Below are positions 23,505-42,890 of a DNA stretch of 64,000 nt, piece by piece. This DNA is from Nanobdellota archaeon (GTDB lineage: Archaea; Nanobdellota; Nanobdellia; Woesearchaeales; UBA9642). The DNA is taken from assembly GCA_021813435.1 (NCBI GenBank), contig JAKAKR010000013.1, forward strand, positions 120,107 to 184,106. Direction: 5' to 3'. The first letter of the stretch is position 1. Each line of letters starts with the position of its first letter. The position numbers and the translations under genes are program-made. The notes below the pieces were generated by a model. That model was not told the origin of the DNA. It searched no databases and saw only the letters and a program-made list of their open reading frames with translations.

Positions 23505-24629
23505 ATGAAATATTCACTCGTATTGCCCTGCAAGGATGAAGAACAGAGTGTCGGGGTATGCATCAAGAAAGCGCAGGATGCATTGCGAAAACTTCACATC
23601 CAAAAAGAAGAGTATGAGATCATTGTTGTTGATAATAATTCTGTCGATCATTCTGCAACGATTGCTGCAGCGCAGGGCGCAAGTGTCCTGCGTGAACCTG
23701 TCCAGGGCTATGGCGCAGCATTGCTGCGTGGATTTAGACAGGCAAAGGGAGAGTATATCATCATGTGTGACGCGGATAACACGTATGATCTTGAGGAATT
23801 GCCGCTTCTTATCAAACATGTGACAACGCACGACATTGTCGTCGGCAATCGCTTCAATAAGCGCATGAAACCGCATGCAATGCCGCTCATGCACCGTTAC
23901 ATCGGCAACCCATTCTTCTCAAGGCTTTCACGATTATTCTTCAAGATTCCCTGCACTGATATCCACTCAGGATTCCGTGTCATGAGACGTGATGCACTGC
24001 AAAGACTCGATCTGCAGTCATCCGGCATGGAGATCTCCTCAGAGATGCTCATTAAGGCAACACAGTTGCATCTGCGTATCAAAGAAGTGAATATCACCTA
24101 TTCAAGACGCACCGGCCAGTCCAAGATGCGCAGTTTCAATGATGGCTGGCGTCATCTCAAGATGATGCTTCTCTACTCGCCCGAATACCTCTTTCTTTTT
24201 CCCGGAAGCGTCCTTGCAATCGTCGGTATGCTTGCGCTCATTGGTCTTGTCATCAGCAGTGCAGTACTGCAACAGCGCATTGCCGGCATTCATTTCATCA
24301 TTCTGAGCAGCATACTTGCAATTCTTGGCTATCAACTCATATTATTATGGCTGTATACCAAGACGTATCGCATCACGCAGCTCCATGAACAGGATCGTGT
24401 TGTCGAGTATATCCACAACAATATCACGCTCGAGAAAACCATCAGCATAGGCATTGGGATTGTCTGTGTCGGCATCATTGCAGGTGCAGCGCTTTTTATC
24501 CGATGGCCGCAGGGGAATAATCTCATTGATTCTGTAGCATTCAGTATCTTTGCGCTCACCATGATTGTGATCGGTGTGCAGACCATCGCTGCAGGATTCA
24601 TGCTCAGCATCCTTGGCAACAGGCGATGA
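23505..24629 (+). CDS. GT2 polyprenyl-phosphate glycosyltransferase-like (GtrB/ArnC/DPM1-like) with C-terminal TM domain
   Basis: LVLPCKDEE, EIIVVDNNSVDHS, GYGAALLRGF and MCDADNTYD motifs, followed by about 4 TM helices. Confidence 0.8.
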   Translation: MKYSLVLPCKDEEQSVGVCIKKAQDALRKLHIQKEEYEIIVVDNNSVDHSATIAAAQGASVLREPVQGYGAALLRGFRQAKGEYIIMCDADNTYDLEELPLLIKHVTTHDIVVGNRFNKRMKPHAMPLMHRYIGNPFFSRLSRLFFKIPCTDIHSGFRVMRRDALQRLDLQSSGMEISSEMLIKATQLHLRIKEVNITYSRRTGQSKMRSFNDGWRHLKMMLLYSPEYLFLFPGSVLAIVGMLALIGLVISSAVLQQRIAGIHFIILSSILAILGYQLILLWLYTKTYRITQLHEQDRVVEYIHNNITLEKTISIGIGIVCVGIIAGAALFIRWPQGNNLIDSVAFSIFALTMIVIGVQTIAAGFMLSILGNRR

Positions 24630-24767: not shown

Positions 24768-26837
24768 ATGGTAAGAGTCAAGAAACATACTGGACTGATT
24801 GTACTGACGCGCATGACCATGATCATCGCGTTTGCAGCATTACTCGTATTTTCAATCGTCGCACTCAGCGGTTGCACTCTAAAATCAGAAGGCACCACGA
24901 CAGGCAGCACTGCATCTTCGGAAAATAAGTATCCGCAGAAACTTGATTGGTTCATCCCTGACGGGATGCGCGCAGATCCTGATCTCTTTAATATTTATCA
25001 ATGGGCGCAGGAGGGAAAGCTCCCGAATATCAAGCGCATGATGGACGAGGGATCCTATGGGTATTCGATACCGACCTATCCCTCTCATACACCGGTCAAT
25101 TTTGCAACACTGCTTACCGGAGCATATCCGAAGACAACCGGCATTGCAGACGGTCCTATGCGCATCGAAGGGTATAGTCTTGAAAAACCTTCTGTTGCAG
25201 GATTCAGTTCAAGTGCAAGAAAAATCCCTGCGATCTGGACAACATTCGAGGAAGAAGGCAAAAGCGTCGTACTCCTCTCAGTACCAGGTTCTACACCGCC
25301 TGAACTCAAGCAGAACGGCATCACGATCCGCGGAAGATGGGGCGGTTGGGGCGCAGATTTCAATTCACTCGTATTTGAGAAAAAATCAGTCGAGCAGCGC
25401 AAGAAACTTGCACGCAACGCGCGCCTATTCTATCTCGGACTTGAACTCACGGCATTTGTCGACCCGGTGATGAATGCATCCTGGGATATCACTGACCCTG
25501 ATGTGCAATCCATCGGCAATACGACTAAGATCGAGATGAAGATGTATGGCACTACATTCTATGCAAAAATGGTCGACAGCAGCGCAAACCCGCAAGCCGG
25601 ATATGATACTGTTCTCTTTTCCATCGATAGGAACACGACTGTTGCAACGCTCAAACAGGGTGAGTGGAGCATGTGGATCCCGGTCACATTCTTCTGGAAC
25701 AATAAGAGTGTTGCATCCCATGTCAAATTCAATGTGATCAAGATCGACAATGACGGATTCTACCGCTTCCGTGTTGTCGTCGATAATATGAATGAGTATA
25801 TCACTGAGCCGCAGGCAGTATCGCAGGAGATGGAAAAGGCGACAGGACCAATGGTTGATTTTGTGGATAATTTCCCGCCGCAACTCATCTATTATCCTGA
25901 AGACAAGGATACATTCATGCGTGAATCAGAATTATCATTTGACTGGCATGCGCGCGCAGTTGACGCCGTATACCGACTCTATCACCCGGATATCTTTATC
26001 CACGATATCTATTCGCCAAACCAGATGCTGACCAGCAGATGGTGGATGGGATATATTGATCCTGAGAGCAAGCGATATAATGATGTATCCGATGTCCAGC
26101 GCGAGCAATTATGGAGTGAGACCCAGGACATGTACAAGGAACTCGACCGTATCGTCGGTAAAATGCTGGACAATGCAGACAACAACACCATCATTGTCCT
26201 CAGTTCTGACCATGGCGCAGTTCCCTTTAATCGCGCAGTCAAGTTGAACAATCTCTTTGCAAAAAAAGGATGGATCAACTATACCATCAATCCCCAGACG
26301 GGAGAGCATGTGATTGATTGGACGCACTCACAAGTCGTCTTCCTCAAGATGGACAGCGTCTATGTCAACCCGAATGGCCTGGGGCCGAACTGGACGCGCG
26401 GGAGCGGACCTGCGTACGAGAAACTGCGCAGTGAGGTCATTGCAACACTGGAAAATATCACTGACACTAACGGGTCAAAACCGCTTGCCGCAGCAGTCAA
26501 ATGGGAAGATGTCAAAGCGTATCTCGACCTTCCGCCAGACCGCACAGGAGATATTGTGATTGCAAACAATGCAGGGTATGGATGGGATGAAGAGATCAGC
26601 GCTGACGGCGCCTTGTTCGCAACACCGCTCGAATCAGGATATAAACAGGCGATATTTGCAAATACGACGAAAGGACTCTGGACCCCCTTCATCATCGTCG
26701 GAAAAGGGATCAAGAAAGGATATCGCATCCCTGAACCCATCAATCATGTCGATCAGGTACCGACAATCCTGCATGCCATGAACCGGCCTATTCCTACAAC
26801 TGTCGAAGGGAGAGTGGTGAATGAGATCTTCGAATAA
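24768..26837 (+). CDS. lipobox-anchored alkaline-phosphatase-superfamily enzyme (type I phosphodiesterase/NPP-like)
   Basis: Signal peptide ending ALSGC. DGMRADP, PTYPSHTPVNFATLLTG (Thr nucleophile context) and SSDHG motifs. SD-like GGTGTGGGGGG lies upstream of ATG 24768. Confidence 0.75.
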   Translation: MVRVKKHTGLIVLTRMTMIIAFAALLVFSIVALSGCTLKSEGTTTGSTASSENKYPQKLDWFIPDGMRADPDLFNIYQWAQEGKLPNIKRMMDEGSYGYSIPTYPSHTPVNFATLLTGAYPKTTGIADGPMRIEGYSLEKPSVAGFSSSARKIPAIWTTFEEEGKSVVLLSVPGSTPPELKQNGITIRGRWGGWGADFNSLVFEKKSVEQRKKLARNARLFYLGLELTAFVDPVMNASWDITDPDVQSIGNTTKIEMKMYGTTFYAKMVDSSANPQAGYDTVLFSIDRNTTVATLKQGEWSMWIPVTFFWNNKSVASHVKFNVIKIDNDGFYRFRVVVDNMNEYITEPQAVSQEMEKATGPMVDFVDNFPPQLIYYPEDKDTFMRESELSFDWHARAVDAVYRLYHPDIFIHDIYSPNQMLTSRWWMGYIDPESKRYNDVSDVQREQLWSETQDMYKELDRIVGKMLDNADNNTIIVLSSDHGAVPFNRAVKLNNLFAKKGWINYTINPQTGEHVIDWTHSQVVFLKMDSVYVNPNGLGPNWTRGSGPAYEKLRSEVIATLENITDTNGSKPLAAAVKWEDVKAYLDLPPDRTGDIVIANNAGYGWDEEISADGALFATPLESGYKQAIFANTTKGLWTPFIIVGKGIKKGYRIPEPINHVDQVPTILHAMNRPIPTTVEGRVVNEIFE

Positions 26838-27495
26838 GAAGTACCTCAAGCAGGGAATAGTTCTTGTTTTTTTTTCAGTGATCACACTAGTCATGTTCGG
26901 ATCCCTTATCAGCATCTCCGGATGCGCAACCTCCGGGACTATCTCGAGTCAGAATGCAAGCACTGCATCGCAGGATAAGGATCTAGGGAATCACAACATA
27001 CTCGGCCGAGTATTTATTGCAAGCAGGTCTCTTTTCAACCAGACCTATTATGAGTTTGATGATGGCAATGAGAGCATCACGCTCAAGAGCATTCCTCATG
27101 TTGATGCAGTGGTTGCAGAATCATTGGTCTCTGACCGGCTCACACTGTTCAGATCAATCTTTGAACCCAAACGTGTCGACTATCCCGGGGCCTACACGCA
27201 AACCATCATCTGCCCTGAGGAATACAAGCCGAAATATGATGAGATAAATCTTACCGCGCAATCCGCGAGTACTGAGAACAGCGGCGCATACCTTAAGTAT
27301 TTTGTGGGATACGCCAACAGCAATAAAGTCGCAGGGGCATGCAGTGCTGACCTCATCGCCTACCATTACGCCTATGGATTCATGTACTGCCCAGGAGCGC
27401 AATCACTTGTCGAGATTGAATATTACGCAGTGCTTCCGCTCAATACCACGCAATCATTCATGAAAAACCTTGATTGCACGATGCTCAAAGAATAA
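26821..27495 (+). CDS. putative lipoprotein, unknown function
   Basis: Signal peptide with lipobox SISGC. It overlaps the upstream gene by 17 nt. I recognise no motif. Confidence 0.5.
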   Translation: MRSSNKKYLKQGIVLVFFSVITLVMFGSLISISGCATSGTISSQNASTASQDKDLGNHNILGRVFIASRSLFNQTYYEFDDGNESITLKSIPHVDAVVAESLVSDRLTLFRSIFEPKRVDYPGAYTQTIICPEEYKPKYDEINLTAQSASTENSGAYLKYFVGYANSNKVAGACSADLIAYHYAYGFMYCPGAQSLVEIEYYAVLPLNTTQSFMKNLDCTMLKE

Positions 27496-27506
27496 TAAGA
27501 ATAAGT

Positions 27507-29396
27507 ATGATGACAACACGAAAACAGGCGCTCACGCAAGACCGACCATACGCATTGTTCTGGTGCATTGTACTTCTTATTATCGTCATGATCACTGCCG
27601 GATGCGCGACAAAGGATACGCCCCCGCCACAAGAAGGATCCATCAATCTCTCCTGCCCGAACTGCAATATTATCCTACTTAATGTTGAGTTATTCCGCGC
27701 AGATTACATCGATCTCATCAGTACCGAGCATGGAAACAACACCCCGAATATCGACAGGTTCTTCAATAATTCAATCATATTCACTGATGCCTCAGCGCCT
27801 GCAGGATCGACCATCCAGAGCAATATTGCAGTCCTCACTGCCGAAAATCCTTTTATCATTAACCAGATACTTACCAAGAGATACCCGGGATATAATATTC
27901 TTCTCGACAAGAACGTTGATTATTTTACCGCATACCCGACGATCATACAATTGCTCAACAACGAAGGGTATTATACGGTTAATATCAATGAGGGCGGGCA
28001 TACCGGAAGATTCACATACATGGATAAGGGCGTTGACAATTATATTGAAGAGAGCGCATACGAGATGATGGGGATAAAATCTGCAAGAATGTTTCCGGCT
28101 ATTGCACGCACCATCACAGATCTCGAGAAGAATGAATCCCAAAAAAACAAGTTCTTCCTTCTTGCCCACAGCAACATCCTGCATAGTTCCCCGTATATTT
28201 ACCCCCTCAATCGATCACGGATCAATAGCTCGCTGATCAGGTATATCCCGATTTATGAAACAGGACAATACATGGTATTCGAGAATATCAGTACGGGAAA
28301 CCGCACCCCGGAATCATATGATAGCCCGGGATTCCACACCTGGTTTGAGGATTATGGATCAAAATTTCATGATATACCGCACTGGACCACTCAAAAGGAC
28401 AACACGCAGTATAAAGAAATAACGCAGCAACTGTATATACAGCAGGTGAAATACGTTGATGAAGAATTCGGAAAAATATTCGATCAGCTCGAAGAGAACA
28501 ATATGACTGACAATACCATCATCGTATTGTATGCAAACCATGGTGACGGACTCTTTGACAATGACGTGCCCGTGCATGACGTCGAATACCAATCATGCAT
28601 CCATGTCCCGATACTGATCAGGCATCCGCGAATCAATAAGACAATCGTTGTCACAACACCGGTCGCGCTCATTGACCTTATGCCTACAATCTATCATATG
28701 GTTTCTGAAAAAGAGCAGAATGGCACATTTGCAACCGCAGGACTTGCGGACGCCATGAGCGCAAAAAATTACACTCAAAAATATATCTTCGGTTTGAGCC
28801 AAAACCACGGCGATGAGTATGTACGAGATGGAGATATGAAATTACTCATACAAGCAAACAATGAAAAGACGCTCTATAATATCACCGCAGACCCGCATGA
28901 AGAGCACAATATTGCCGCGCAATATCCTGAGAAAGTAAAAGAATTAGACGATCTACTCATCACGCAGGAGATCGAATCAGAAAAAGAATACTATCGGCGG
29001 GAGGGACGCGATATAAACCTGACTGCAGCGCAGTATGAGATCATGAACGATGCATCATTTTATCACGGCTACGACAAGGAGCATAATGATGAGATATGGT
29101 ACCGATGGATAAGCGGGAATCATTCAGTCATAAGTCTTCCTGATAAGTATCATGGAAAGACTATCGAGATCCACGGAGGGTTTTTCTATTGCGAAAAGAA
29201 CCAGATGCGCCCGCAAATACGCATCAACGGGATCACAGTCACTGCATTCCCATTCAATACCACGCTCAATTCAACAAATATCACGTTCGAATCGCAAAAA
29301 GCCATGCGACCCATTGACTGCACAGTAAGCGCGAAAAGCGACGACACGAGATACCTTGCAGTATACATCGACAGCAACACACGAGTGATAAATTAA
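27507..29396 (+). CDS. lipobox-anchored sulfatase-like AP-superfamily enzyme with C-terminal FRW type-B module (paralogue 1)
   Basis: Lipobox ITAGC. ADYIDLISTEHGNNTPNIDRFF, APAGSTIQSNIAVLT, LYANHGDGL and DPHEEHNIA motifs. The last ~117 aa form the type-B module (WYRWISG...GGFFYC...RPIDC...TRYLAVYIDSNT). Confidence 0.75.
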   Translation: MMTTRKQALTQDRPYALFWCIVLLIIVMITAGCATKDTPPPQEGSINLSCPNCNIILLNVELFRADYIDLISTEHGNNTPNIDRFFNNSIIFTDASAPAGSTIQSNIAVLTAENPFIINQILTKRYPGYNILLDKNVDYFTAYPTIIQLLNNEGYYTVNINEGGHTGRFTYMDKGVDNYIEESAYEMMGIKSARMFPAIARTITDLEKNESQKNKFFLLAHSNILHSSPYIYPLNRSRINSSLIRYIPIYETGQYMVFENISTGNRTPESYDSPGFHTWFEDYGSKFHDIPHWTTQKDNTQYKEITQQLYIQQVKYVDEEFGKIFDQLEENNMTDNTIIVLYANHGDGLFDNDVPVHDVEYQSCIHVPILIRHPRINKTIVVTTPVALIDLMPTIYHMVSEKEQNGTFATAGLADAMSAKNYTQKYIFGLSQNHGDEYVRDGDMKLLIQANNEKTLYNITADPHEEHNIAAQYPEKVKELDDLLITQEIESEKEYYRREGRDINLTAAQYEIMNDASFYHGYDKEHNDEIWYRWISGNHSVISLPDKYHGKTIEIHGGFFYCEKNQMRPQIRINGITVTAFPFNTTLNSTNITFESQKAMRPIDCTVSAKSDDTRYLAVYIDSNTRVIN

Positions 29397-29417
29397 ATGT
29401 AGGCAAAGGCAAACAAC

Positions 29418-31331
29418 ATGAAAGCACGGAAAAAAACATCGCGGAGAAGATATCTTGTACTTGCATTGCTCATGAGCTGCATGTTCATCATTGCAGGATG
29501 CTCAGGGGATCATGTACGCACACAAAAGGAAGAGCTAATTGATCTCTCCTGCCCGAACTGCAATGTCATCTTTCTTAATATCGAACTATTACGCGCAGAC
29601 TACGTAGACCTCATCAGCACCGAGCACGGCAACAACACTCCAAATATCGACAAATTCTTCAATAATTCAATTATATTCACTGATGCATCAGCACCTGCAG
29701 GATCAACAATCCAGAGCAACATCGCAACACTTACTGACACCGATCCCTACATTATCGATCAGATCATCAAGCAAGGGTATAAACAACAAGAGGCATCCCC
29801 CCATGCTATTTCGCTTGGAAACACCTCATACCACAACAACCTCTTGAACCGGACCATTGCAGAGAGATTATCCGCCGAGGGGTATCACACTATCGATGTC
29901 AATGATGGCATACACGCAGGACGATATACTTCCATGGATGTAGGATTCAATGAATATAATGAAGAAACAGAATCAGGAACGCCAGAGGGCATGCGATTAA
30001 ATGCAGCACTGGTACGCACACAGGAGATAATCCAGAAAGAGAGCACGATACTTTACAAGAGCGATAACCTCCAACCCCTGAACAGAACCAATCACACTAC
30101 AAATAAATTCTTTCTTTTGCTCCACAGTAATCTCCTGCACGCGCTCCCCTATGCATATCCACTCAATCGATCAAGAATCATCGCACCGGAATTAGCATAT
30201 CTTAAATATGATGGCCTGCAATATAAATTATTTCTCGATTATCATCCCGAACAAGAACGCCCGAAGGACATGCAGGACAGTATGTTTAAGGAGTGGGCAT
30301 TACAGCACACCTGCAGTTATGGACAGACATGCTATACGAGTGAATCAGCATACCAACGCTACCATGCACTTGCGCATCAAGCCTATGCACAACAAGTACA
30401 ATATATTGATGAGGAGCTCGGAAAGATATTTGATGAGATTGAATCGCAGGGATTGATGAATAACACTATTATCGTCCTCTACTCCAATCATGGCGACGGA
30501 CTACTCGATAATAATGTTACGAATCATGATGTGTCCTACCAATCCTGCATCCACGTACCGCTCCTCATCAGACATCCCAAAGTCCACCGGCAATTACGGG
30601 TGGAGACGCCGGTTGCAATGCGTGATCTTGTGCCAACAATTACTGCGATGGTGCAAACGAAAAATACTACAACAGAAAGAAGTGTTGATCAGGGATTATT
30701 GCCCGCAATAACCAATCAGACGTATACACAGGAATATCTCTTCGGGCTCAGCAACGGGAAGTATGTCCGGCAGGGCGACATGAAATTGATCCTATTCTCG
30801 AGAAATAATCGTGAACTTTACAATATTACCGCAGACCCTCATGAAGAGCATAATATTGCAGCGCAGTATCCAGAAATCGTAAAAGAACTGAGCGATGCAT
30901 TATTTGCGCATGATATTGCAATGCAAGAAATACTCAAGAAAGAATTCAACATCAACGCGATATACCCCTACACCGTATATGACGAGGCAACATTCAAGAA
31001 TTTCTATGAGTGGGAATATGCCGCAGAAACACGTTTCCAATGGACAAGCGGTAAGCATGCTAGTATAGAGATCCCTGCAGTATACCTCGGAAGAACCATC
31101 GATATCCACGGAGGATTTTTCTATTGCGAGAATAACCAAACGCGCGCTCAAGCAAGGATCAATGGGGTCCCCATCACTGCATTCCCATTCAACATCACAC
31201 TAAACACGACAACACTGGATTTCGAATCCGATGATGCGATGCGACCGATAGATTGCGCGGCGAGTACGAAAAGCGACGACACGAGATACCTTGCAGTATA
31301 CATCGACAGCAATACACACATCATCAACTGA
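29418..31331 (+). CDS. lipobox-anchored sulfatase-like AP-superfamily enzyme with C-terminal FRW type-B module (paralogue 2)
   Basis: Lipobox IIAGC. It carries the same motif set as paralogue 1, and the two genes share long identical DNA stretches. Confidence 0.75.
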   Translation: MKARKKTSRRRYLVLALLMSCMFIIAGCSGDHVRTQKEELIDLSCPNCNVIFLNIELLRADYVDLISTEHGNNTPNIDKFFNNSIIFTDASAPAGSTIQSNIATLTDTDPYIIDQIIKQGYKQQEASPHAISLGNTSYHNNLLNRTIAERLSAEGYHTIDVNDGIHAGRYTSMDVGFNEYNEETESGTPEGMRLNAALVRTQEIIQKESTILYKSDNLQPLNRTNHTTNKFFLLLHSNLLHALPYAYPLNRSRIIAPELAYLKYDGLQYKLFLDYHPEQERPKDMQDSMFKEWALQHTCSYGQTCYTSESAYQRYHALAHQAYAQQVQYIDEELGKIFDEIESQGLMNNTIIVLYSNHGDGLLDNNVTNHDVSYQSCIHVPLLIRHPKVHRQLRVETPVAMRDLVPTITAMVQTKNTTTERSVDQGLLPAITNQTYTQEYLFGLSNGKYVRQGDMKLILFSRNNRELYNITADPHEEHNIAAQYPEIVKELSDALFAHDIAMQEILKKEFNINAIYPYTVYDEATFKNFYEWEYAAETRFQWTSGKHASIEIPAVYLGRTIDIHGGFFYCENNQTRAQARINGVPITAFPFNITLNTTTLDFESDDAMRPIDCAASTKSDDTRYLAVYIDSNTHIIN

Positions 31332-31437
31332 AAGAGGCATAACGTAACGCGATGACAGCAGAAGAGATTAAGCAATATTACTCAGGGGTAAACATTTATA
31401 AAGTCTGCCACAGCGTAGCAAAGTGAAGTGAATTATC

Positions 31438-32463
31438 ATGAAAATACTTATCATTAACCCGCTTGACGAGACGAATCTCGACGGGAAAAAAGGCGGCAAT
31501 CAACGTTTTGCAGAGGCACTTGCAAAAAATATCCGCAAGCACACCACCCACACGGTCGTTGAGAAATACACCCACTTTGATGACCATAAGCTGCGCAATA
31601 TCATCAATGCCTATATTGAGAATCGGAAGATCAATTGCCGCGGATATGACGTAGTCATTTCCATAAAATTCCCGAGTTATGTTATCCGGCACAAGAATCA
31701 TATATCACTCATCAATCATCGCATGCGGCGATACTATGATCTCTGGCCTGAATATAAAAAATCACTCCAGGGCGCCAAGCTTTGGGGGCAGATGCTAGCG
31801 CGCATGCTCTTTCATGTCGTCGATTCCTATTATCTCAAGAGGGTGAAAAGAATCTATGCGCAATCAGGAGTCATCAAGCATCGGCTTGCGCGTTCAGGCA
31901 TCCCATCACAAGTCCTCAATCCGCCAGAGACTATGCGTGGACTTACAAAGGGAAAATACCAGTACTTCCTGCTTCCCGGAAGACTCTACGATACAGGAAA
32001 GCGCGTCAGTCTTGCTATCGACGCGATGAAACAGGTCAAGGGCAATGTCAAACTGATCATTACTGGTGACGGGGGAGATGCTGCGGCGCTGCGTGAGCGT
32101 GCACGCAGTGATCCACGGATAATGTTTACAGGCTATATCAGCGAAAGAAAGCTTGCAGCACTCTACAAGGACGCACTTGCAGTCATCTTTATTCCTGTAG
32201 CAGAAGATTATGGCCTTGTCGCAGTCGAGGCGATGAAATGCGCAAAGCCTGTCATTACCTGCACGGATTCCGGCGGACCGACTGAACTTATCAAGAATCG
32301 TCGTAATGGTTTTATCTGCCCTCCACGTCCTGACCGCATCGCTTCCTGCATGACATACTTTGCAAAGAACAAAGCTGCAGCAAAGCGCATGGGCGCGCAG
32401 GCATACGCAGACACCCAATCCATCAACTGGAAGGATTATATCAGGAAAATCCTGCAACCATAA
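31438..32463 (+). CDS. GT4-family glycosyltransferase
   Basis: 341 aa. EDYGLVAVEAMKCAKPVI and TGGPTELI are typical of GT-B/GT4 enzymes. Confidence 0.8.
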   Translation: MKILIINPLDETNLDGKKGGNQRFAEALAKNIRKHTTHTVVEKYTHFDDHKLRNIINAYIENRKINCRGYDVVISIKFPSYVIRHKNHISLINHRMRRYYDLWPEYKKSLQGAKLWGQMLARMLFHVVDSYYLKRVKRIYAQSGVIKHRLARSGIPSQVLNPPETMRGLTKGKYQYFLLPGRLYDTGKRVSLAIDAMKQVKGNVKLIITGDGGDAAALRERARSDPRIMFTGYISERKLAALYKDALAVIFIPVAEDYGLVAVEAMKCAKPVITCTDSGGPTELIKNRRNGFICPPRPDRIASCMTYFAKNKAAAKRMGAQAYADTQSINWKDYIRKILQP

Positions 32464-32474
32464 CTTTTTTAACA

Positions 32475-33227
32475 ATGATCGATGTGAACCTTATCAAGGA
32501 ACTGGTGAAGACTGATTTCAAACTGAAATATTACGGATCATTCCTCGGATTTTTCTGGTCGCTGCTCAAGCCCTTTCTCATGCTCGGAATCCTCTACTAT
32601 GTATTCACCTATTTCATCAAGGTCCAGATAGAGAATTTTGCACTCTTCCTGCTCCTCGGCATCATCATCTGGAACTATTTTGTCGATACCACCTATGATA
32701 GCATGAATGCGATCACCGGCAAGAGATCAATACTGAGCAAGACAAAACTATCGCCTGCAATCATTGTCGTCAGCGCATCAATCCAACCTGAAATCACACT
32801 TTTCCTGAACCTTGTCGTCTTTTTCCTCATCTTTTTTTTCAGCGGGCATGCTATCGGAATGGAATTCTACTATTTCATCATCCTCATGGCACTCCTGATG
32901 CTCACGGCAACCGCGATATCGCTTGTCCTTATCTTTTTCCATGTCCGATTCATGGATTTCCGTCATATCTGGGATGTGTTCATCCAGATACTCTTCTGGG
33001 CGACGCCAATCGTCTACAATCTCGATTATGTCTCCCTCAATTTCCAGCGATGGTTCCTGCTCAACCCCATTGCACGCATAATCGTCGATGCGCGGGCAGT
33101 CATCCTCTATAATACGCTTCCAGAACCAAAGCAGATGATGATCACGCTCATTATTGTATTCATCATCAGTGTCGGATGCTATTATATCTACCGCATGACC
33201 CGCAACCGGATGGCTGATCTCCTATGA
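32475..33227 (+). CDS. ABC-2 type polysaccharide/teichoic-acid exporter permease (Wzm/TagG-like)
   Basis: 250 aa, 6 TM. The N-terminal DFKLKYYGSFLGFFWSLLKP motif is typical of ABC-2 permeases. It overlaps the ATPase gene by 4 nt. Confidence 0.8.
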   Translation: MIDVNLIKELVKTDFKLKYYGSFLGFFWSLLKPFLMLGILYYVFTYFIKVQIENFALFLLLGIIIWNYFVDTTYDSMNAITGKRSILSKTKLSPAIIVVSASIQPEITLFLNLVVFFLIFFFSGHAIGMEFYYFIILMALLMLTATAISLVLIFFHVRFMDFRHIWDVFIQILFWATPIVYNLDYVSLNFQRWFLLNPIARIIVDARAVILYNTLPEPKQMMITLIIVFIISVGCYYIYRMTRNRMADLL

Positions 33228-33991
33228 TCACTGCAAAAAAGATATCCAAAGAATATTACATCCCGCATATCAGAAAGACAACGCTATTTGAGAAACTGCT
33301 CAGTCTTGTGCGGGAACATCGCAAGATGGAAAAGTTCTATGCATTAAAGGATATTTCGTTCGAGGTGCAGAAAGGAGAGATCTTTGGCATCATCGGAAAG
33401 AACGGGAGCGGCAAGACAACACTGCTCAAGATCATCGGAGGGATTATCCCGCCAACGACAGGAACAGTCACTGCGACCGGAAAGGTTGTCCCATTTCTCG
33501 ACCTTGGCATCGGATTCCACCCAGAACTCACGGCGCGGGAGAACATCTACCTGTATGGCGCAATCATGGGCATGAGCCGTGAACAGATTACGCGGGAATT
33601 CAAGGAGATCCTGCGATTTGCAGGGGTCGAACGTTTCGCAGACATGAAACTCAAGCATTTCTCTGCAGGAATGGCCATGCGACTCGCATTCTCGACCATG
33701 ATCCGCACTGCATTCGACGCCATTATCCTTGACGAGGTCTTTGCGGTCGGCGATGGCGAATTCCAGAAGAAGTGTATGATAGAATTGCTTAAATTCAAAA
33801 AGCAGGGCAAGACCATCATCATCACGAGCCATGCCATGGATCCCATCATGGACTTTTGCGACCGCGCAATGCTTCTCGAGAATGGGACTGTCAAGATCAT
33901 CGGAAAGCCGCGGGATGTAGTCATGGCATACGACCCTGAGAGTGTCACGAAGAGAAGAAGATTGCGAAAATCCGCAGATAGTATCATATGA
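33224..33991 (+). CDS. ABC exporter ATP-binding protein (Wzt/TagH-like, no C-terminal carbohydrate-binding extension)
   Basis: Walker A GKNGSGKTTLLK, signature FSAGMAMRLAF and Walker B AIILDE. It is only 255 aa long. Confidence 0.85.
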   Translation: MITAKKISKEYYIPHIRKTTLFEKLLSLVREHRKMEKFYALKDISFEVQKGEIFGIIGKNGSGKTTLLKIIGGIIPPTTGTVTATGKVVPFLDLGIGFHPELTARENIYLYGAIMGMSREQITREFKEILRFAGVERFADMKLKHFSAGMAMRLAFSTMIRTAFDAIILDEVFAVGDGEFQKKCMIELLKFKKQGKTIIITSHAMDPIMDFCDRAMLLENGTVKIIGKPRDVVMAYDPESVTKRRRLRKSADSII

Positions 33992-36672: not shown

Positions 36673-37239
36673 ATGACACGAAGATCATCCATAAAGGCAA
36701 AAAAGATGAAATCCAAATATCGCATCAACAGAACGATGTTACTGTTGCTAATGAGCGTTGCAATCATCAGCATACTTATCAATATTGCGCTCATACTCCT
36801 TTTGATGAATTCTGAAAGGTTGCTACATCCGACAACTACTGTGGATTCGGACATGTCGACAGGGTGGATATCAACGCATCCGATCATTGATGATATGACA
36901 TTCCAAAATTTCTTCGAACAAGAGACCGACCAAAAAATACGATTCCGATGGAGTAGTGATAATTATTCTTCGATTACACTGCCTAAGAAATATGTTGGAA
37001 GGACACTTGAGATTGACGGGTTTTTTTTCGTTTGCCAAAAGAATAATACTCACCCCCATATTGTCGTAAATGGCGCCGCCATTGATGCATTCCCGTTTAA
37101 AATCCGGCTTAATTCAACAACGCTCACATTCCGCTCAAACGACGGGATGCGACCAGTGGATTGTTATACGGAAAACAGTACCTATGATAGACGGACTCTT
37201 ACATTCATGATCACTAATGAGACAAGAATTGTGGGTTAA
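36673..37239 (+). CDS. membrane-anchored stand-alone FRW type-B module protein
   Basis: 188 aa with one N-terminal TM. The remainder aligns with the C-terminal modules of the sulfatase-like paralogues (IRFRWSS...DGFFFVC...MRPVDC...RRTLTFMITNET). Confidence 0.6.
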   Translation: MTRRSSIKAKKMKSKYRINRTMLLLLMSVAIISILINIALILLLMNSERLLHPTTTVDSDMSTGWISTHPIIDDMTFQNFFEQETDQKIRFRWSSDNYSSITLPKKYVGRTLEIDGFFFVCQKNNTHPHIVVNGAAIDAFPFKIRLNSTTLTFRSNDGMRPVDCYTENSTYDRRTLTFMITNETRIVG

Positions 37240-37336: not shown

Positions 37337-38827
37337 ATGGATAAGAATAAAAAAAAGATAGCACGAACATTCGTTCTCATAGGCAGTGTCATGATTGGCA
37401 TCCTGCTCATCATTTCCGGATGCACAAATAATGCACAAGAGAAAAAATCAAACGATCCTTTCTGCAAGGATTGTAATGTCATATTCATCAATATTGAACT
37501 CCTCCGCGCAGATTACGTAGACCTCATCAGTACCGAACACGGCAACAACACCCCAAACATCGACAGATTCTTCAAGAACGGCATCATATTCGAGGATGTC
37601 ACCGCTTCAGCAGGAGAGACAGGGATCAGTAATATCGCCACACTCACCAATACAGATTCTTACTTCGTAAACCAGATTGTCAGCATATTCTATAAATCAC
37701 TCAATCAACTCGAACAAGGCAATAAGACTGGAGATCATTCATTGGTGAGTAAATTCACAAAATACTTGACGATTGCGCAGATTCTTCAAGCTAATGGATA
37801 CCGGACCATCTGTATAAATGATGGTGCATTTTCCGGGAAGTACACGTTTATGGATGCGGGATGCGAAAAATATTATGATGTGACAAACGACCCCTCATAC
37901 AATGCAGGGATAACTACCACAGTAAAGAATATCATGTTGCTTGAGAATCTCAAAGGGAAAGAGCAGAATAAATTCTTTTTATTATATCATAGCGATGCGC
38001 TTCACGCATTGCCCTATAAGTATCCTCTTGCACGCGAACATGATACCAATCCATTGATAGAATACATCCATCCTGAGAATAGCGATTACTATGAAACGCG
38101 GTTCCATATCGCTAAGAATGGGACAATCCTTAATAAGGGAGAACTTCGTGCAGAGTTATTCAATACTGATTGGATGGATAATACCACATTCAACACCTAC
38201 CATCAACTTGCGCACACCGTATATGCACAACAAGTAAGATATGTCGATACGGAGTTAGGGAAGATCTTTTCAGAACTAGAACAGAGCGGAATGCTCAAAA
38301 ATTCCATTGTTGTCCTCTACGCAAATCATGGAGACGGATTGTATGATAATAATATACCTAATCATGGAGTCACATATCAATCATGTGTCCATGTGCCGCT
38401 ACTCATCAGACTTCCAAGTAGTACCAGGCAGGAACGTATCACTACCCCGGTCGCATTAATTGACCTCGCGCCGACCATCTATCAGATGACAAGAGTTGAA
38501 AAAAGGAATATATCCGATCTTTCGCCAGACGCGGCCACTGCACGCGCAGGATTACTTCCGGCGATACTGAACGGCACTTATGATCGTGAGTATATCTTTG
38601 GTATGAATAATGGAGAATTTGTGCGATACCAGGATATGAAACTTCACCTCCTCACGGATAATCAGAAAGAATTGTATAATATCACCAGTGACCCGCACGA
38701 AGAGCATAACATCGCAGCGCAATACCCTGAAATCGTTAAAGCATTAAATGATATCATCAGTGCGCATGATATACAAGTGCAGAAAGAGTTTAATGATCGA
38801 TTTGAGAACAGGACTATAGGCAGATAA
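37337..38827 (+). CDS. lipobox-anchored sulfatase-like AP-superfamily enzyme (paralogue 3, no type-B module)
   Basis: Lipobox IISGC. ADYVDLISTEHGNNTPNIDRFF, SAGETGISNIATLT, LYANHGDGL and DPHEEHNIA motifs. It ends shortly after the catalytic domain. Confidence 0.75.
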   Translation: MDKNKKKIARTFVLIGSVMIGILLIISGCTNNAQEKKSNDPFCKDCNVIFINIELLRADYVDLISTEHGNNTPNIDRFFKNGIIFEDVTASAGETGISNIATLTNTDSYFVNQIVSIFYKSLNQLEQGNKTGDHSLVSKFTKYLTIAQILQANGYRTICINDGAFSGKYTFMDAGCEKYYDVTNDPSYNAGITTTVKNIMLLENLKGKEQNKFFLLYHSDALHALPYKYPLAREHDTNPLIEYIHPENSDYYETRFHIAKNGTILNKGELRAELFNTDWMDNTTFNTYHQLAHTVYAQQVRYVDTELGKIFSELEQSGMLKNSIVVLYANHGDGLYDNNIPNHGVTYQSCVHVPLLIRLPSSTRQERITTPVALIDLAPTIYQMTRVEKRNISDLSPDAATARAGLLPAILNGTYDREYIFGMNNGEFVRYQDMKLHLLTDNQKELYNITSDPHEEHNIAAQYPEIVKALNDIISAHDIQVQKEFNDRFENRTIGR

Positions 38828-40970: not shown

Positions 40971-42890
40971 ATGATTGATCGAAAAAATATCATCATACTA
41001 ACAATCATCGTAGTGCTCTATACCGCTTTTTTATTCTATGTAAGCTACCAATCACCGTATTATCTTGTCCCCGACGATGCAAACCACGTGCAGGAATCAT
41101 ATCTGCTCTCTCAGGGAAATATCCAATATGCGGTAAGAAATTGGACGAGACCGCTCTATGCCATTCCCTGCGCAACATTGATAACACTATTCGGATATAG
41201 CCTGCAATCCTGCAGGCTAATCGAAATTTTCTCGACTATTGGAACAATCATCCTACTCTATCTCATCATCTATCATTTTACAAAGTCAAAAATGTTTGCG
41301 ATGAGTGGGGTAGTATTGTTCGGTATGATCCCTATGGTCATTGTTCTTGCTACTTCAAATTTTGCTGAACCCCTATTCGCATTCATCTTGCTCCTCGGGA
41401 TCTATTTTCTGATACGAGAGAAATGGGCATTATCTGCAATAACGATCGGCCTTCTCCCATTAGTACGTACAGAAGGATTTCTGATGATTGCCGCATGGAT
41501 AGTATATTATATGTCTTTACGCCTTTTTGTGTATGAAGAAAAGACCCGCAGCGGCGTAAAGGTAAAGATAAAAGGCATTCATCTCAAAGAGACGGCGAAC
41601 CATCCGCACATCGCTTTCATCATAGCACTCATCTTGTTACCGACAATTATCTGGTGCATCGCAAGTCTATTCATCCTCGGGAATATATTTAACCCATTCC
41701 AGACATATTCACTTCAAGTATTCAAAGAGACAGAAATATTTATCCCCTTATGGTTCGTCCCCGTACGCATAGCATATTGCATAGGGATTCTTACTTCAGC
41801 ATTATTCATCTTAGCGATGATACGTCTACGCAAGATCCCCGACACTGTACGATTTGCCGCGTATATTGCATTAGGGTTTATCATCATTCTATCAGTATCA
41901 GCAGAATTCCGATTTCTTGGGCAGGGGATGGCAGAACACGCGATGATCATCGCCCCGCTCCTCATACTTACCGGCATCCTATCCATCACTACACTCCCAT
42001 TCAAAAAAAGAACACTCATCATACTCTGCATAATAATCATTCTCGCGCAAGGGATAGAACTATACTCATGGAGTATTGGACATAATACTGATATCACTAA
42101 ATGGCCCGGAATCCTGAATGGACCGACCGGACATAATCGGGAAATCATCAGAGGAAACAGTTCTCCAGAATGGTTTATCGGAGAATCATATAACAAACTC
42201 ACACTCTTCTATGACAAGACCATTCCACAGAATGAAACAATCCAACTTTGTTATATCACGATCATGACCAATTATGCAAATCAATATCCGAAGTATCGAA
42301 TTATCCACACAATAAACGATGTTGAGACACGCAGATTATGCCCCATGTGCGTCCCGAGTTGCGATTTTACAAACAGCGAGTGGATTGTCAGGCATAAGGG
42401 GATACCCCTTGACCTGTCTGACGCCATAAAGGCACGATATGCCATAGTATACGATTCTGAGATGACACAAGTGCTTAAAAAAAATGATGAAGAATTCGAG
42501 CCGGTATTCAATAATCTCACATTCATCAATTTCAGTCAAAAGGGAACTTACGTTAATTTCAGGAATGAAACCATCAGTTTCCGGCAATCGAACAGCACAT
42601 CGTTTGCGATAACCGTTCCCCGATCATTCGTCGGCAAAACAATGGTAATCAGCGGATCTCCATTCTACTGTTTTAGAAATAAGACATATGCAGATATTCG
42701 AGTGAATGGCAATCCGATCAAAGTTTTCCCGTATGAGATTTATCTTAATTCAACAACCGTCATGTTCTCGTCTCCTAATCCTATGATGCCCGCATTTTGC
42801 GAACCGATCACAGAAAATCCATCCAAACAAAACACCGATACCCGAGAGATTGCATTTACCATCAATAATAACACCGTCCTTCTCAAATAG
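40971..42890 (+). CDS. polytopic GT-C-like (ArnT/PMT-like) membrane protein with C-terminal FRW type-B-like module
   Basis: About 11 TM in the first 380 aa, with an acidic first-loop motif YYLVPDDANH. The C-terminal ~128 aa (ISFRQSN...GSPFYCF...IRVNGNPIKVFPYEIYLNSTT...REIAFTINNNT) align with the type-B modules. Confidence 0.6.
   Translation: MIDRKNIIILTIIVVLYTAFLFYVSYQSPYYLVPDDANHVQESYLLSQGNIQYAVRNWTRPLYAIPCATLITLFGYSLQSCRLIEIFSTIGTIILLYLIIYHFTKSKMFAMSGVVLFGMIPMVIVLATSNFAEPLFAFILLLGIYFLIREKWALSAITIGLLPLVRTEGFLMIAAWIVYYMSLRLFVYEEKTRSGVKVKIKGIHLKETANHPHIAFIIALILLPTIIWCIASLFILGNIFNPFQTYSLQVFKETEIFIPLWFVPVRIAYCIGILTSALFILAMIRLRKIPDTVRFAAYIALGFIIILSVSAEFRFLGQGMAEHAMIIAPLLILTGILSITTLPFKKRTLIILCIIIILAQGIELYSWSIGHNTDITKWPGILNGPTGHNREIIRGNSSPEWFIGESYNKLTLFYDKTIPQNETIQLCYITIMTNYANQYPKYRIIHTINDVETRRLCPMCVPSCDFTNSEWIVRHKGIPLDLSDAIKARYAIVYDSEMTQVLKKNDEEFEPVFNNLTFINFSQKGTYVNFRNETISFRQSNSTSFAITVPRSFVGKTMVISGSPFYCFRNKTYADIRVNGNPIKVFPYEIYLNSTTVMFSSPNPMMPAFCEPITENPSKQNTDTREIAFTINNNTVLLK

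Follow-up and report, generated by a model that had tools for sequence, protein, structure and literature searches.

A Gene Cassette in an Archaeal Glycan Locus

We analyzed a 64,000-nucleotide stretch (hereafter, the window) of contig JAKAKR010000013.1 from the Nanobdellota archaeon assembly GCA_021813435.1 (positions 120,107 to 184,106 of the forward strand), focusing on eight co-directional genes at 23.5–34 kb that are separated by short or overlapping junctions. In order, these encode a family 2 glycosyltransferase (GT2), an NPP-like enzyme (A), a protein without a Pfam family (B), two paralogs with a sulfatase fold (C and D), a family 4 glycosyltransferase (GT4), and the permease (Wzm) and ATPase (Wzt) of an ABC exporter; a third sulfatase-fold paralog (J) follows further downstream (Table 1). 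We found that A, B, and C form a conserved, horizontally mobile cassette and that B is very likely the partner of the sulfatase-fold enzyme, both of which are new with respect to the first-pass annotation of the locus. The genome is 1.41 Mb in size and 96% complete. It contains a gene for ribosomal protein S28e, a family that among the control genomes was matched in archaeal ones only, and is thus archaeal; a search of the genome for small-subunit rRNA found none.

Thr at the Nucleophile Site of the Sulfatase-Fold Enzymes

The three sulfatase-like proteins match PF00884 (cutoff 25) with 90 (C), 74 (D), and 114 bits (J), and the SGSH_C and Sulfatase_C families match them below their cutoffs. 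In pairwise and profile alignments to solved sulfatases, the motifs GSTIQSN of C and D and GETGISN of J align with the formylglycine motif C-x-P-S-R or C-x-A-S-R, placing a Thr on the position of the Cys/formylglycine and an Asn on that of the signature Arg. The AlphaFold 2 (AF2) model of J (predicted local distance difference test [pLDDT] 90) puts T95 at the start of helix 95–104 following strand 2, which is the nucleophile position of the superfamily, the first acidic ligand E53 at the end of strand 1 (47–53), and N330-H331 after strand 323–328. The modeled geometry is that of a canonical alkaline phosphatase superfamily enzyme. To place the residue in a wider context, we aligned 84 sequences, consisting of C, D, and J and 81 search matches that include their database copies: In 82 of them, the nucleophile column has G-x-[T/S]-x-x-S-N or a slight variant, two rows are gapped, and none contains a Cys.

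The pattern [CS]-x-[PA]-x-R is absent throughout A, C, D, and J and occurs in 1 of 74 family rows. The 96%-complete genome has no match to the formylglycine-generating enzyme FGE (PF03781), and none of its radical-SAM proteins reaches the cutoff for anSME, the top TIGR03942 match scoring 41 bits against the required 349. The S1 signature has been described as comprising Cys/Ser and Arg, and PF00884 seed members that bear Thr and lack the signature have been noted before (PMC5066984). Judged from these alignments and searches, C, D, and J are not formylglycine (S1) sulfatases, and phosphoryl rather than sulfuryl transfer would be expected since they look like Thr-nucleophile enzymes of the alkaline phosphatase superfamily.

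In both sequence and modeled fold, the three proteins appear to branch from the true S1 sulfatases rather than from LtaS/EptA. The best Foldseek matches of the J model are carbohydrate and choline sulfatases (probability 1.0, E ~1e-19, TM score ~0.6), the family profile matches sulfatases at E values from 1e-34 to 1e-15, and a single-sequence search gave E = 8.5e-4 for LtaS vs. 3e-14 for sulfatases. The sulfate-pocket Lys-x-His has become K/R-[YF]-T, the second Lys position aligns with His, and the metal dyad D-H is replaced by N-H within a nearly invariant A-N-H-G-D-G. A nearly invariant C-x-x-C-N preceding the first beta-strand could be a disulfide or a metal site. A transmembrane (TM) scan found just one hydrophobic segment in each of C, D, and J, located at the N-terminus and ending in a lipobox. 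They may work like the phospholipid-dependent transferases but, by sequence, stand outside that family.

The NPP-Like Enzyme

A matches PF01663 with 95 bits (cutoff 23), the match being split into two halves by ~250 inserted residues. Its motifs D-G-x-R-A-D, P-S-x-T-P-x-N (holding the putative Thr nucleophile; PSHTPVN at residues 105–111), and S-D-H-G align with the metal ligands and nucleophile of ENPP1. In our alignment of homologs (alignment A2), D65 and D481-H482 are invariant and the position of T108 is occupied by Thr or Ser; Cys36 of the lipobox is the sole Cys of the protein. A is 43–73% identical to its homologs in Woesearchaeota, Altiarchaeota, Planctomycetes, Proteobacteria, and Oligoflexia, with identities of 55–60% between archaea and bacteria. 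A phmmer search of A against the Protein Data Bank (PDB) returned nothing at E ≤ 0.001, a search with a subfragment aimed at the second metal site gave chance matches only, and no NCBIfam family exceeded its cutoff for A, C, D, or J.

A distant and compact form of the cassette is found in a Methanosarcinales metagenome-assembled genome (MAG; locus L014, 1737–7653), where short A-like proteins (~430 aa) flank one B gene and two sulfatase-like genes. These A-like proteins have Ser at the nucleophile site and retain the D-x-x-x-H motif, which in alignment A2 is present only in the distant L014 homologs.

B and Its Pairing with the Sulfatase-Fold Enzyme

A profile search against 1.84 billion representatives, clustered at 50% identity, collected 1,014 members of the B family at E ≤ 0.001. 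Four Cys are conserved, which suggests two disulfides. The AF2 model of B (pLDDT 87.6) is a Mog1/PsbP-like alpha/beta sandwich. In a wide search with VIA-align, it matched DcrB with Z = 9.7 (root-mean-square deviation 3.5 Å over 111 residues) and PsbP with Z = 8.3, values modestly above the stated background of Z = 7–8, and Foldseek found no match for it at E ≤ 0.001.

Three lines of evidence connect B to the sulfatase-fold enzyme. One is the gene order described below, including that of gammaproteobacterial loci, where B adjoins the sulfatase-like gene and A is found elsewhere in the locus. Another comes from fusions of B and PF00884 domains in six proteins, three for each domain order; the nucleophile site is occupied by Thr or Ser in every one of them, and C-x-P-x-R is absent. 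The last is a predicted complex. Co-folding C (residues 34–629) with B (52–224) gave an ipSAE of 0.66 (median of three runs), and the best of three controls reached 0.00. The ipSAE mark is reached by 58 of 80 solved complexes and by 2 of 110 mismatched pairs, counts that are only a rough guide here because our own alignments were used. The runs share at least 75% of contacts with a partner pLDDT of 81–82, and the predicted interface sets the C-terminal helix of C (478–496) against helix 94–113 and the sheet of B. The co-fold thus supports a predicted binding of B to C, and, taking sequence and model evidence together, it is very likely that B pairs with the sulfatase-fold enzyme.

The B domain is also duplicated without an enzyme domain, in tandem B-B proteins of ~380 aa (P0134 and P0171).

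Spread and Synteny of the Cassette

To study the distribution of the genes, we scanned one genome per species with the family alignment and obtained 13 close loci. These come from Woesearchaeota, Altiarchaeota, another archaeon, Planctomycetes, beta- and gammaproteobacteria, Oligoflexia, and an "Asaia" MAG, the nearest being from Woesearchaeota MAGs. In nearly all of the 13, a sulfatase-like gene lies beside homologs of B and A, and the stop and start codons often overlap. A further 46 loci came from scanning metagenomes with the B alignment, and filtering resulted in 27 nonredundant loci with at least 1.5 kb of readable sequence on each side of B. Of these, 26 contain a sulfatase-like gene, which in 22 is the immediate neighbor of B; for A, the corresponding counts are 24 and 19. 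A GT2 was detectable in 14 loci and Wzm/Wzt in only 1. Outside the filtered set, Wzm/Wzt lie beside the cassette in L073, and L067 is the same contig as L001; in total, Wzm/Wzt are near the cassette in three fetched loci besides the window, two of them representing one contig. The tie to Wzm/Wzt is local to Woesearchaeota-type loci.

The B family is found in 3 of 201 genomes of the window's taxonomic class and was not found in the same-genus genome that we searched. In the tree of A (quick search, midpoint rooted), archaeal and bacterial rows interleave, and the window and L001 have as their sister group (SH-aLRT 99) a bacterial clade with a betaproteobacterium, an Oligoflexia bacterium, and the "Asaia" MAG as its labeled members. 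Given the patchy spread and the interleaved tree, we consider the cassette an accessory module that has crossed domains and make no claim on the direction. Neither the cassette nor the B family was described in the open-access papers and preprints that we searched.

Gammaproteobacterial loci (L007, L009–L012, and L093) show a variant in which a protein-kinase-fold gene and a short GT2-like gene precede two sulfatase-like genes.

Lipoboxes and Predicted Anchoring

A, B, C, D, and J begin with a positively charged N-region and a hydrophobic stretch, followed by a lipobox that ends in VALSGC (A), SISGC (B), ITAGC (C), IIAGC (D), or IISGC (J). A crude genome-wide scan detected lipobox-like N-termini in 17 of the 1,394 open reading frames (ORFs) of at least 100 aa, 4 of them in this stretch, and the filter passed over D; the clustering in the stretch is far beyond chance. 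The lipoboxes are probably used, as the genome encodes homologs of both Lgt and LspA, families for which we found no match (PF01790 and PF01252) in any of four archaeal control genomes. From their sequences, the five proteins are probably extracytoplasmic and lipid anchored, that is, lipoproteins of the bacterial type.

The Gene Neighborhood in the Window

The 45 kb flanking the string form a dense glycan-modification locus with genes for GT2, GT4, and GT8 glycosyltransferases, a carbamoyltransferase, an SGNH protein, and several radical-SAM proteins. Radical-SAM/SPASM genes are numerous near the cassette, and we considered the maturation of the Thr by such an enzyme, in the way that anSME matures Ser; we rejected this as none reaches the anSME cutoff and most cassette loci contain no radical-SAM gene. 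The GT2 of the string matches PF00535 with 99 bits, and its top NCBIfam match is AglJ (150 bits, under the cutoff of 325). The GT4 is found next to Wzm/Wzt also in the related loci L001 and L073.

The permease stop and ATPase start overlap by 4 nt. The top NCBIfam match of the permease is galactan Wzm/RfbD (52 bits, under the cutoff of 380), and those of the ATPase are TagH (176 bits) and Wzt (162 bits), both under their cutoffs; since the cutoffs of the named Wzm, Wzt, and TagH equivalogs are missed, the pair is assigned to Wzm/Wzt at the family level only. PF00005 covers residues 41–173 of the ATPase, and the ~80 residues remaining without a Pfam match could not accommodate the C-terminal carbohydrate-binding domain that O-antigen Wzt has.

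Much of the first-pass annotation agrees with these results. It had described five ORFs with a signal peptide and lipobox, PSHTPVN in an NPP-like enzyme, a Thr at the nucleophile site of three sulfatase-like paralogs, and an ABC-2 permease and ATPase pair without a C-terminal carbohydrate-binding module, and all of these were recovered. Its assignment further depended on the proteins having no Cys/Ser-x-P-x-R elsewhere and on the Thr being conserved among homologs; the motif search was empty, and the homologs have Thr or, within the same column, Ser.

Table 1. Genes and sequence features of the window and the lipoprotein-processing homologs encoded elsewhere in the genome
Feature	Position	Strand	Evidence or remark
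AglJ-like GT2 with four C-terminal TM helices (polyprenyl-phosphate glycosyltransferase type)	23505..24629	+	139 nt upstream of A
A, NPP-like predicted lipoprotein, 689 aa	24768..26837	+	PF01663
B, predicted lipoprotein, 224 aa, no Pfam family	26821..27495	+	17-nt overlap with the end of A
C, Thr-type sulfatase-fold predicted lipoprotein with C-terminal type-B module	27507..29396	+	PF00884; GSTIQSN, ELFRAD, NHGDG
D, paralog of C (51% identity), motifs and C-terminal module as in C	29418..31331	+	PF00884
GT4 glycosyltransferase	31438..32463	+	PF00534, 91 bits
Wzm-type ABC-2 permease	32475..33227	+	PF01061, 34 bits
Wzt/TagH-type ABC ATPase, 255 aa	33224..33991	+	PF00005
I, membrane-anchored protein, 188 aa, type-B module only	36673..37239	+	Alignment A6, TM scan
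J, third Thr-type sulfatase-fold predicted lipoprotein (GETGISN), without C-terminal module	37337..38827	+	PF00884
L, polytopic GT-C-like membrane protein ending in type-B module	40971..42890	+	Alignment A6, TM scan
Type-B module	28986-29396 (C), 30921-31331 (D), 36880-37239 (I), 42510-42890 (L)		Alignment A6
C-x-x-C-N motif	27654-27665 (C), 29550-29561 (D), 37463-37474 (J)
Lgt homolog	G000:C15:3775-4503	-	PF01790, E 9e-71, 159-kb contig
LspA homolog	G000:C3:34726-35094	+	PF01252, E 2e-31

The Link to Glycans

The genes upstream of the cassette point to sugar polymers. In the loci L003 and L004, A is immediately preceded by a GT2 gene, with an overlap or gap of 4 nt, and in 11 more loci, near-duplicates among them, this GT2 again occupies the upstream position. 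The enzyme is 369–399 aa in length, with D-A-D and QRRRW motifs and C-terminal hydrophobic segments; its top NCBIfam match is PgaC/IcaA (68 bits, far under the cutoff), and its motifs are those of a processive synthase. In L001, as in the window, the gene upstream of A encodes an AglJ-like GT2 (66% identity to that of the window). The GT2 partner is not one orthologous gene, because BLASTP found no significant similarity between the AglJ-like GT2 of the window and the QRRRW-type GT2 of the bacterial loci. Further glycan-modification genes recur in places: One metagenome locus has carbamoyltransferase and SGNH genes near the cassette, and another, represented by two near-identical copies, has radical-SAM genes there, as does the window.

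Within the window, C and D are connected to two other membrane or membrane-anchored proteins, I and L, by a ~110-aa C-terminal module, here called type B, with two invariant Cys and an L-N-[ST]-T sequon. The module has no Pfam match. C and D appear to have gained it in this genome, and its sharing with L and I suggests a common surface target. As the cassette usually lies beside a sugar-polymer synthase, it probably adds phosphate-linked groups to, or removes them from, a surface sugar polymer.

Comparison with Known Systems

BcsG is the phosphoethanolamine transferase of the Escherichia coli/Salmonella cellulose synthase (PMC11379886 and PMC11470070), and OpgB/MdoB is the phosphoglycerol transferase of the periplasmic glucans (PMC3249071). 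Each is a hydroxyl-nucleophile enzyme of the alkaline phosphatase superfamily that works outside the membrane and is encoded beside a processive GT2 whose glycan receives a phospho head group, and the commonest architecture of the cassette, QRRRW GT2, A, B, and sulfatase-fold enzyme, follows the same logic. The phospho group used by BcsG and OpgB comes from a membrane phospholipid, and both enzymes possess a polytopic membrane domain at the N-terminus, whereas A and C have only the signal peptide and lipobox. The cassette differs also in combining two different alkaline phosphatase superfamily enzymes with a partner protein, B.

GacH, which transfers glycerol phosphate to the streptococcal rhamnose polysaccharide (bioRxiv 10.1101/337519), and LtaS (PMC4192460) are similarly Thr-nucleophile PF00884 enzymes that modify or build a surface glycopolymer outside the membrane. 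The C/D/J family has in common with LtaS, EptA, OpgB, and GacH the Thr at the start of the helix after strand 2 and an acidic first metal ligand. Unlike GacH and LtaS, C, D, and J have the sulfatase C-terminal subdomain, N-H in place of D-H, and no five-helix membrane domain. Export of the streptococcal rhamnan relies on a Wzm/Wzt-type ABC transporter, and GacH would therefore be the nearest precedent for the arrangement in the window.

With the S1 sulfatases, C, D, and J share the PF00884 fold and C-terminal subdomain and retain the first acidic ligand and the His of the D/N-H dyad, but they have T-x-x-S-N in place of C/S-x-P/A-x-R. The likeness of A to the NPP/ENPP enzymes (ENPP1, 4b56; Xanthomonas NPP, 2gsn) lies in the PF01663 match, the Thr motif, and the D...D-H metal site; A differs in its length of 689 aa with the ~250-residue insert and in always traveling with B and a sulfatase-fold enzyme. 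B is of the same small, extracytoplasmic, and often lipid-anchored type as DcrB (6e8a), the cyanobacterial PsbP (2xb3), and the mycobacterial LpqN (6e5d), which its Mog1/PsbP-like model resembles, but it has no sequence similarity to the Mog1/PsbP proteins and is set apart by its four conserved Cys and its strict linkage to Thr/Ser-type sulfatase-fold enzymes.

Weighing the Explanations

We consider the best explanation for the cassette to be that phosphoester groups are added to, or removed from, an exported glycan outside the cytoplasm, and we give it about an even chance of being correct. It is rated best because known systems follow the same logic, in which a membrane GT2 or an ABC-exported glycan is paired with an extracytoplasmic, hydroxyl-nucleophile enzyme of the alkaline phosphatase superfamily, namely BcsA–BcsG (PMC11379886), OpgH–OpgB (PMC3249071), and the rhamnan–GacH system (10.1101/337519). 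According to this explanation, A and B together with C, D, and J would constitute one extracytoplasmic, lipid-anchored module with three components: the NPP-like, phosphodiesterase-type enzyme A; the Mog1/PsbP-like protein B, docking onto the C-terminal helix of C; and the sulfatase-fold enzyme C with its Thr nucleophile, of which this genome has three copies. The enzymes would transfer or hydrolyze phosphoester groups through a phospho-Thr intermediate. Their substrate would be the glycan made and exported with the help of the neighboring glycosyltransferases, in the same manner as cellulose for BcsG, periplasmic glucans for OpgB, and rhamnan for GacH, and the product would not be a cytoplasmically polymerized teichoic acid. 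The phosphodiester-containing surface polymer that the first-pass annotation suggested for this locus survives in part: The Thr-type, lipid-anchored enzymes do lie in a string of glycosyltransferase and exporter genes, but the tie to Wzm/Wzt, seen in 1 of the 27 loci, is not general.

Several observations weigh against glycan phospho-modification. Transfer and hydrolysis are not separable by sequence. Searches of the 96%-complete genome yielded no CDP-alcohol phosphatidyltransferase, and phospholipid head-group enzymes are lacking, so any lipid donor would have to be derived from a host. C, D, and J are without the five-helix or polytopic membrane domain of LtaS, EptA, OpgB, GacH, and BcsG; as aligned, their family has Asn for the metal-ligand Asp of the D-H dyad; and the D-x-x-x-H motif of the second NPP metal is not evident in the A-type rows of alignment A2. 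An NMT1-type ABC importer and an SBF symporter lie beside the cassette in gammaproteobacterial loci, and the conservation of A would be just as compatible with a universal soluble substrate imported as a nutrient, for example nucleotides or phosphodiesters.

The last two observations belong to the main rival, nutrient scavenging, which we regard as unlikely. Here, A would cleave nucleotides or phosphodiesters outside the cell, and the monoester phosphate thus produced would be removed by C, D, and J, feeding a DPANN cell unable to make nucleotides or lipids, and the position in a glycan locus would be incidental. A universal substrate would give the 43–73% identity of A across domains, and the importer and symporter, the patchy and accessory occurrence (3 of 201 genomes of the class), and the missing CDP-alcohol phosphatidyltransferase are all in line with scavenging. 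It is at odds with the GT2 synthase directly upstream of A in L003 and L004 and upstream in 11 further loci, with the placement of the window cassette inside a co-directional string of glycosyltransferase and exporter genes, and with the C-terminal module that C and D share with the GT-C-like membrane protein L; moreover, phosphate-regulon genes and nucleoside transporters were not seen among the conserved neighbors. The first-pass annotation had raised the idea of a teichoic-acid-like polymer. In such a pathway, a poly(alditol- or sugar-phosphate) would be built on a polyprenyl carrier, exported by Wzm/Wzt in the manner of TagGH, and remodeled by the alkaline phosphatase superfamily enzymes. 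The ATPase does have TagH and Wzt as its top NCBIfam matches, below the cutoffs, and the Thr-type enzymes adjoin the exporter, an arrangement kept in L001 and L073. We nevertheless judge that pathway very unlikely: TagF/TagB-type proteins (PF04464), LicD (PF04991), and CDP-alcohol phosphatidyltransferase were not found in the 96%-complete genome, Wzm/Wzt are not a conserved partner of the cassette (1 of 27 nonredundant loci), and the searched same-genus genome lacks the cassette. The kinship to LtaS and EptA that the annotation had drawn holds for the Thr nucleophile and fails for the sequence and fold, which are nearer to S1 sulfatases, and for the absent polytopic membrane domain.

Two readings invoke the carrier lipid. 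In one, A and/or C would replace LCP, UppP, or PAP2 enzymes by cleaving a polyprenyl-(pyro)phosphate-linked glycan or recycling the carrier. NPP-type enzymes cleave pyrophosphate as well as phosphodiester bonds (PMC3249071), the AglJ-like GT2 directly upstream of A in the window and L001 is of the polyprenyl-phosphate type, and carriers common to bacteria and archaea would account for the cross-domain conservation. In most other loci, however, the partner is a GT2 of the synthase type with QRRRW. The characterized relatives of that type (cellulose, chitin, and poly-N-acetylglucosamine synthases) need no carrier lipid. Three paralogs and a partner protein also seem excessive for recycling, and we put this role on the same low footing as the teichoic-acid-like pathway. 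In the other, which is only a little less doubtful, the chemistry would be like that of LtaS but with a carrier lipid as the donor: The AglJ-like GT2 would make a polyprenyl-phosphate-sugar, and A or C would attack the phosphodiester of this compound, or of a host-derived lipid, and transfer the sugar-1-phosphate or head-group phosphate to the exported glycan, with B presenting the lipid or the glycan. Least probable by far is that C, D, and J are real sulfatases or dead binding proteins, their Thr being either modified by a radical-SAM enzyme or noncatalytic. Their closest solved structures and sequences are indeed S1 sulfatases, down to the C-terminal subdomain, and radical-SAM/SPASM genes abound nearby. 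Against this, the signature Arg is Asn, the sulfate-pocket Lys and His are changed, and ~70 relatives show almost no variation in the Thr/Ser, the first acidic ligand, N-H-G, and further pocket residues, indicating that the site is under selection.

Implications

The analysis defines a compact module of three to four genes (GT2, A, B, and sulfatase-fold enzyme) that may mark a new type of phospho-modified exopolysaccharide. It also defines the unnamed family B, which has more than 1,000 representative clusters and the candidate role of an obligate partner of Thr/Ser-type sulfatase-fold enzymes. For these enzymes, the database labels "arylsulfatase A-like" and "sulfatase" appear to be wrong across a whole clade that keeps Thr/Ser instead of formylglycine. 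If the cassette did work on a carrier-lipid donor, it would mean a phosphodiester-linked surface glycopolymer in an archaeon and a new three-component class of extracytoplasmic phosphotransferases common to bacteria and archaea. Finally, the occurrence of the module in a genome with Lgt and LspA homologs raises the prospect that DPANN surface biology may borrow bacterial envelope machinery wholesale.

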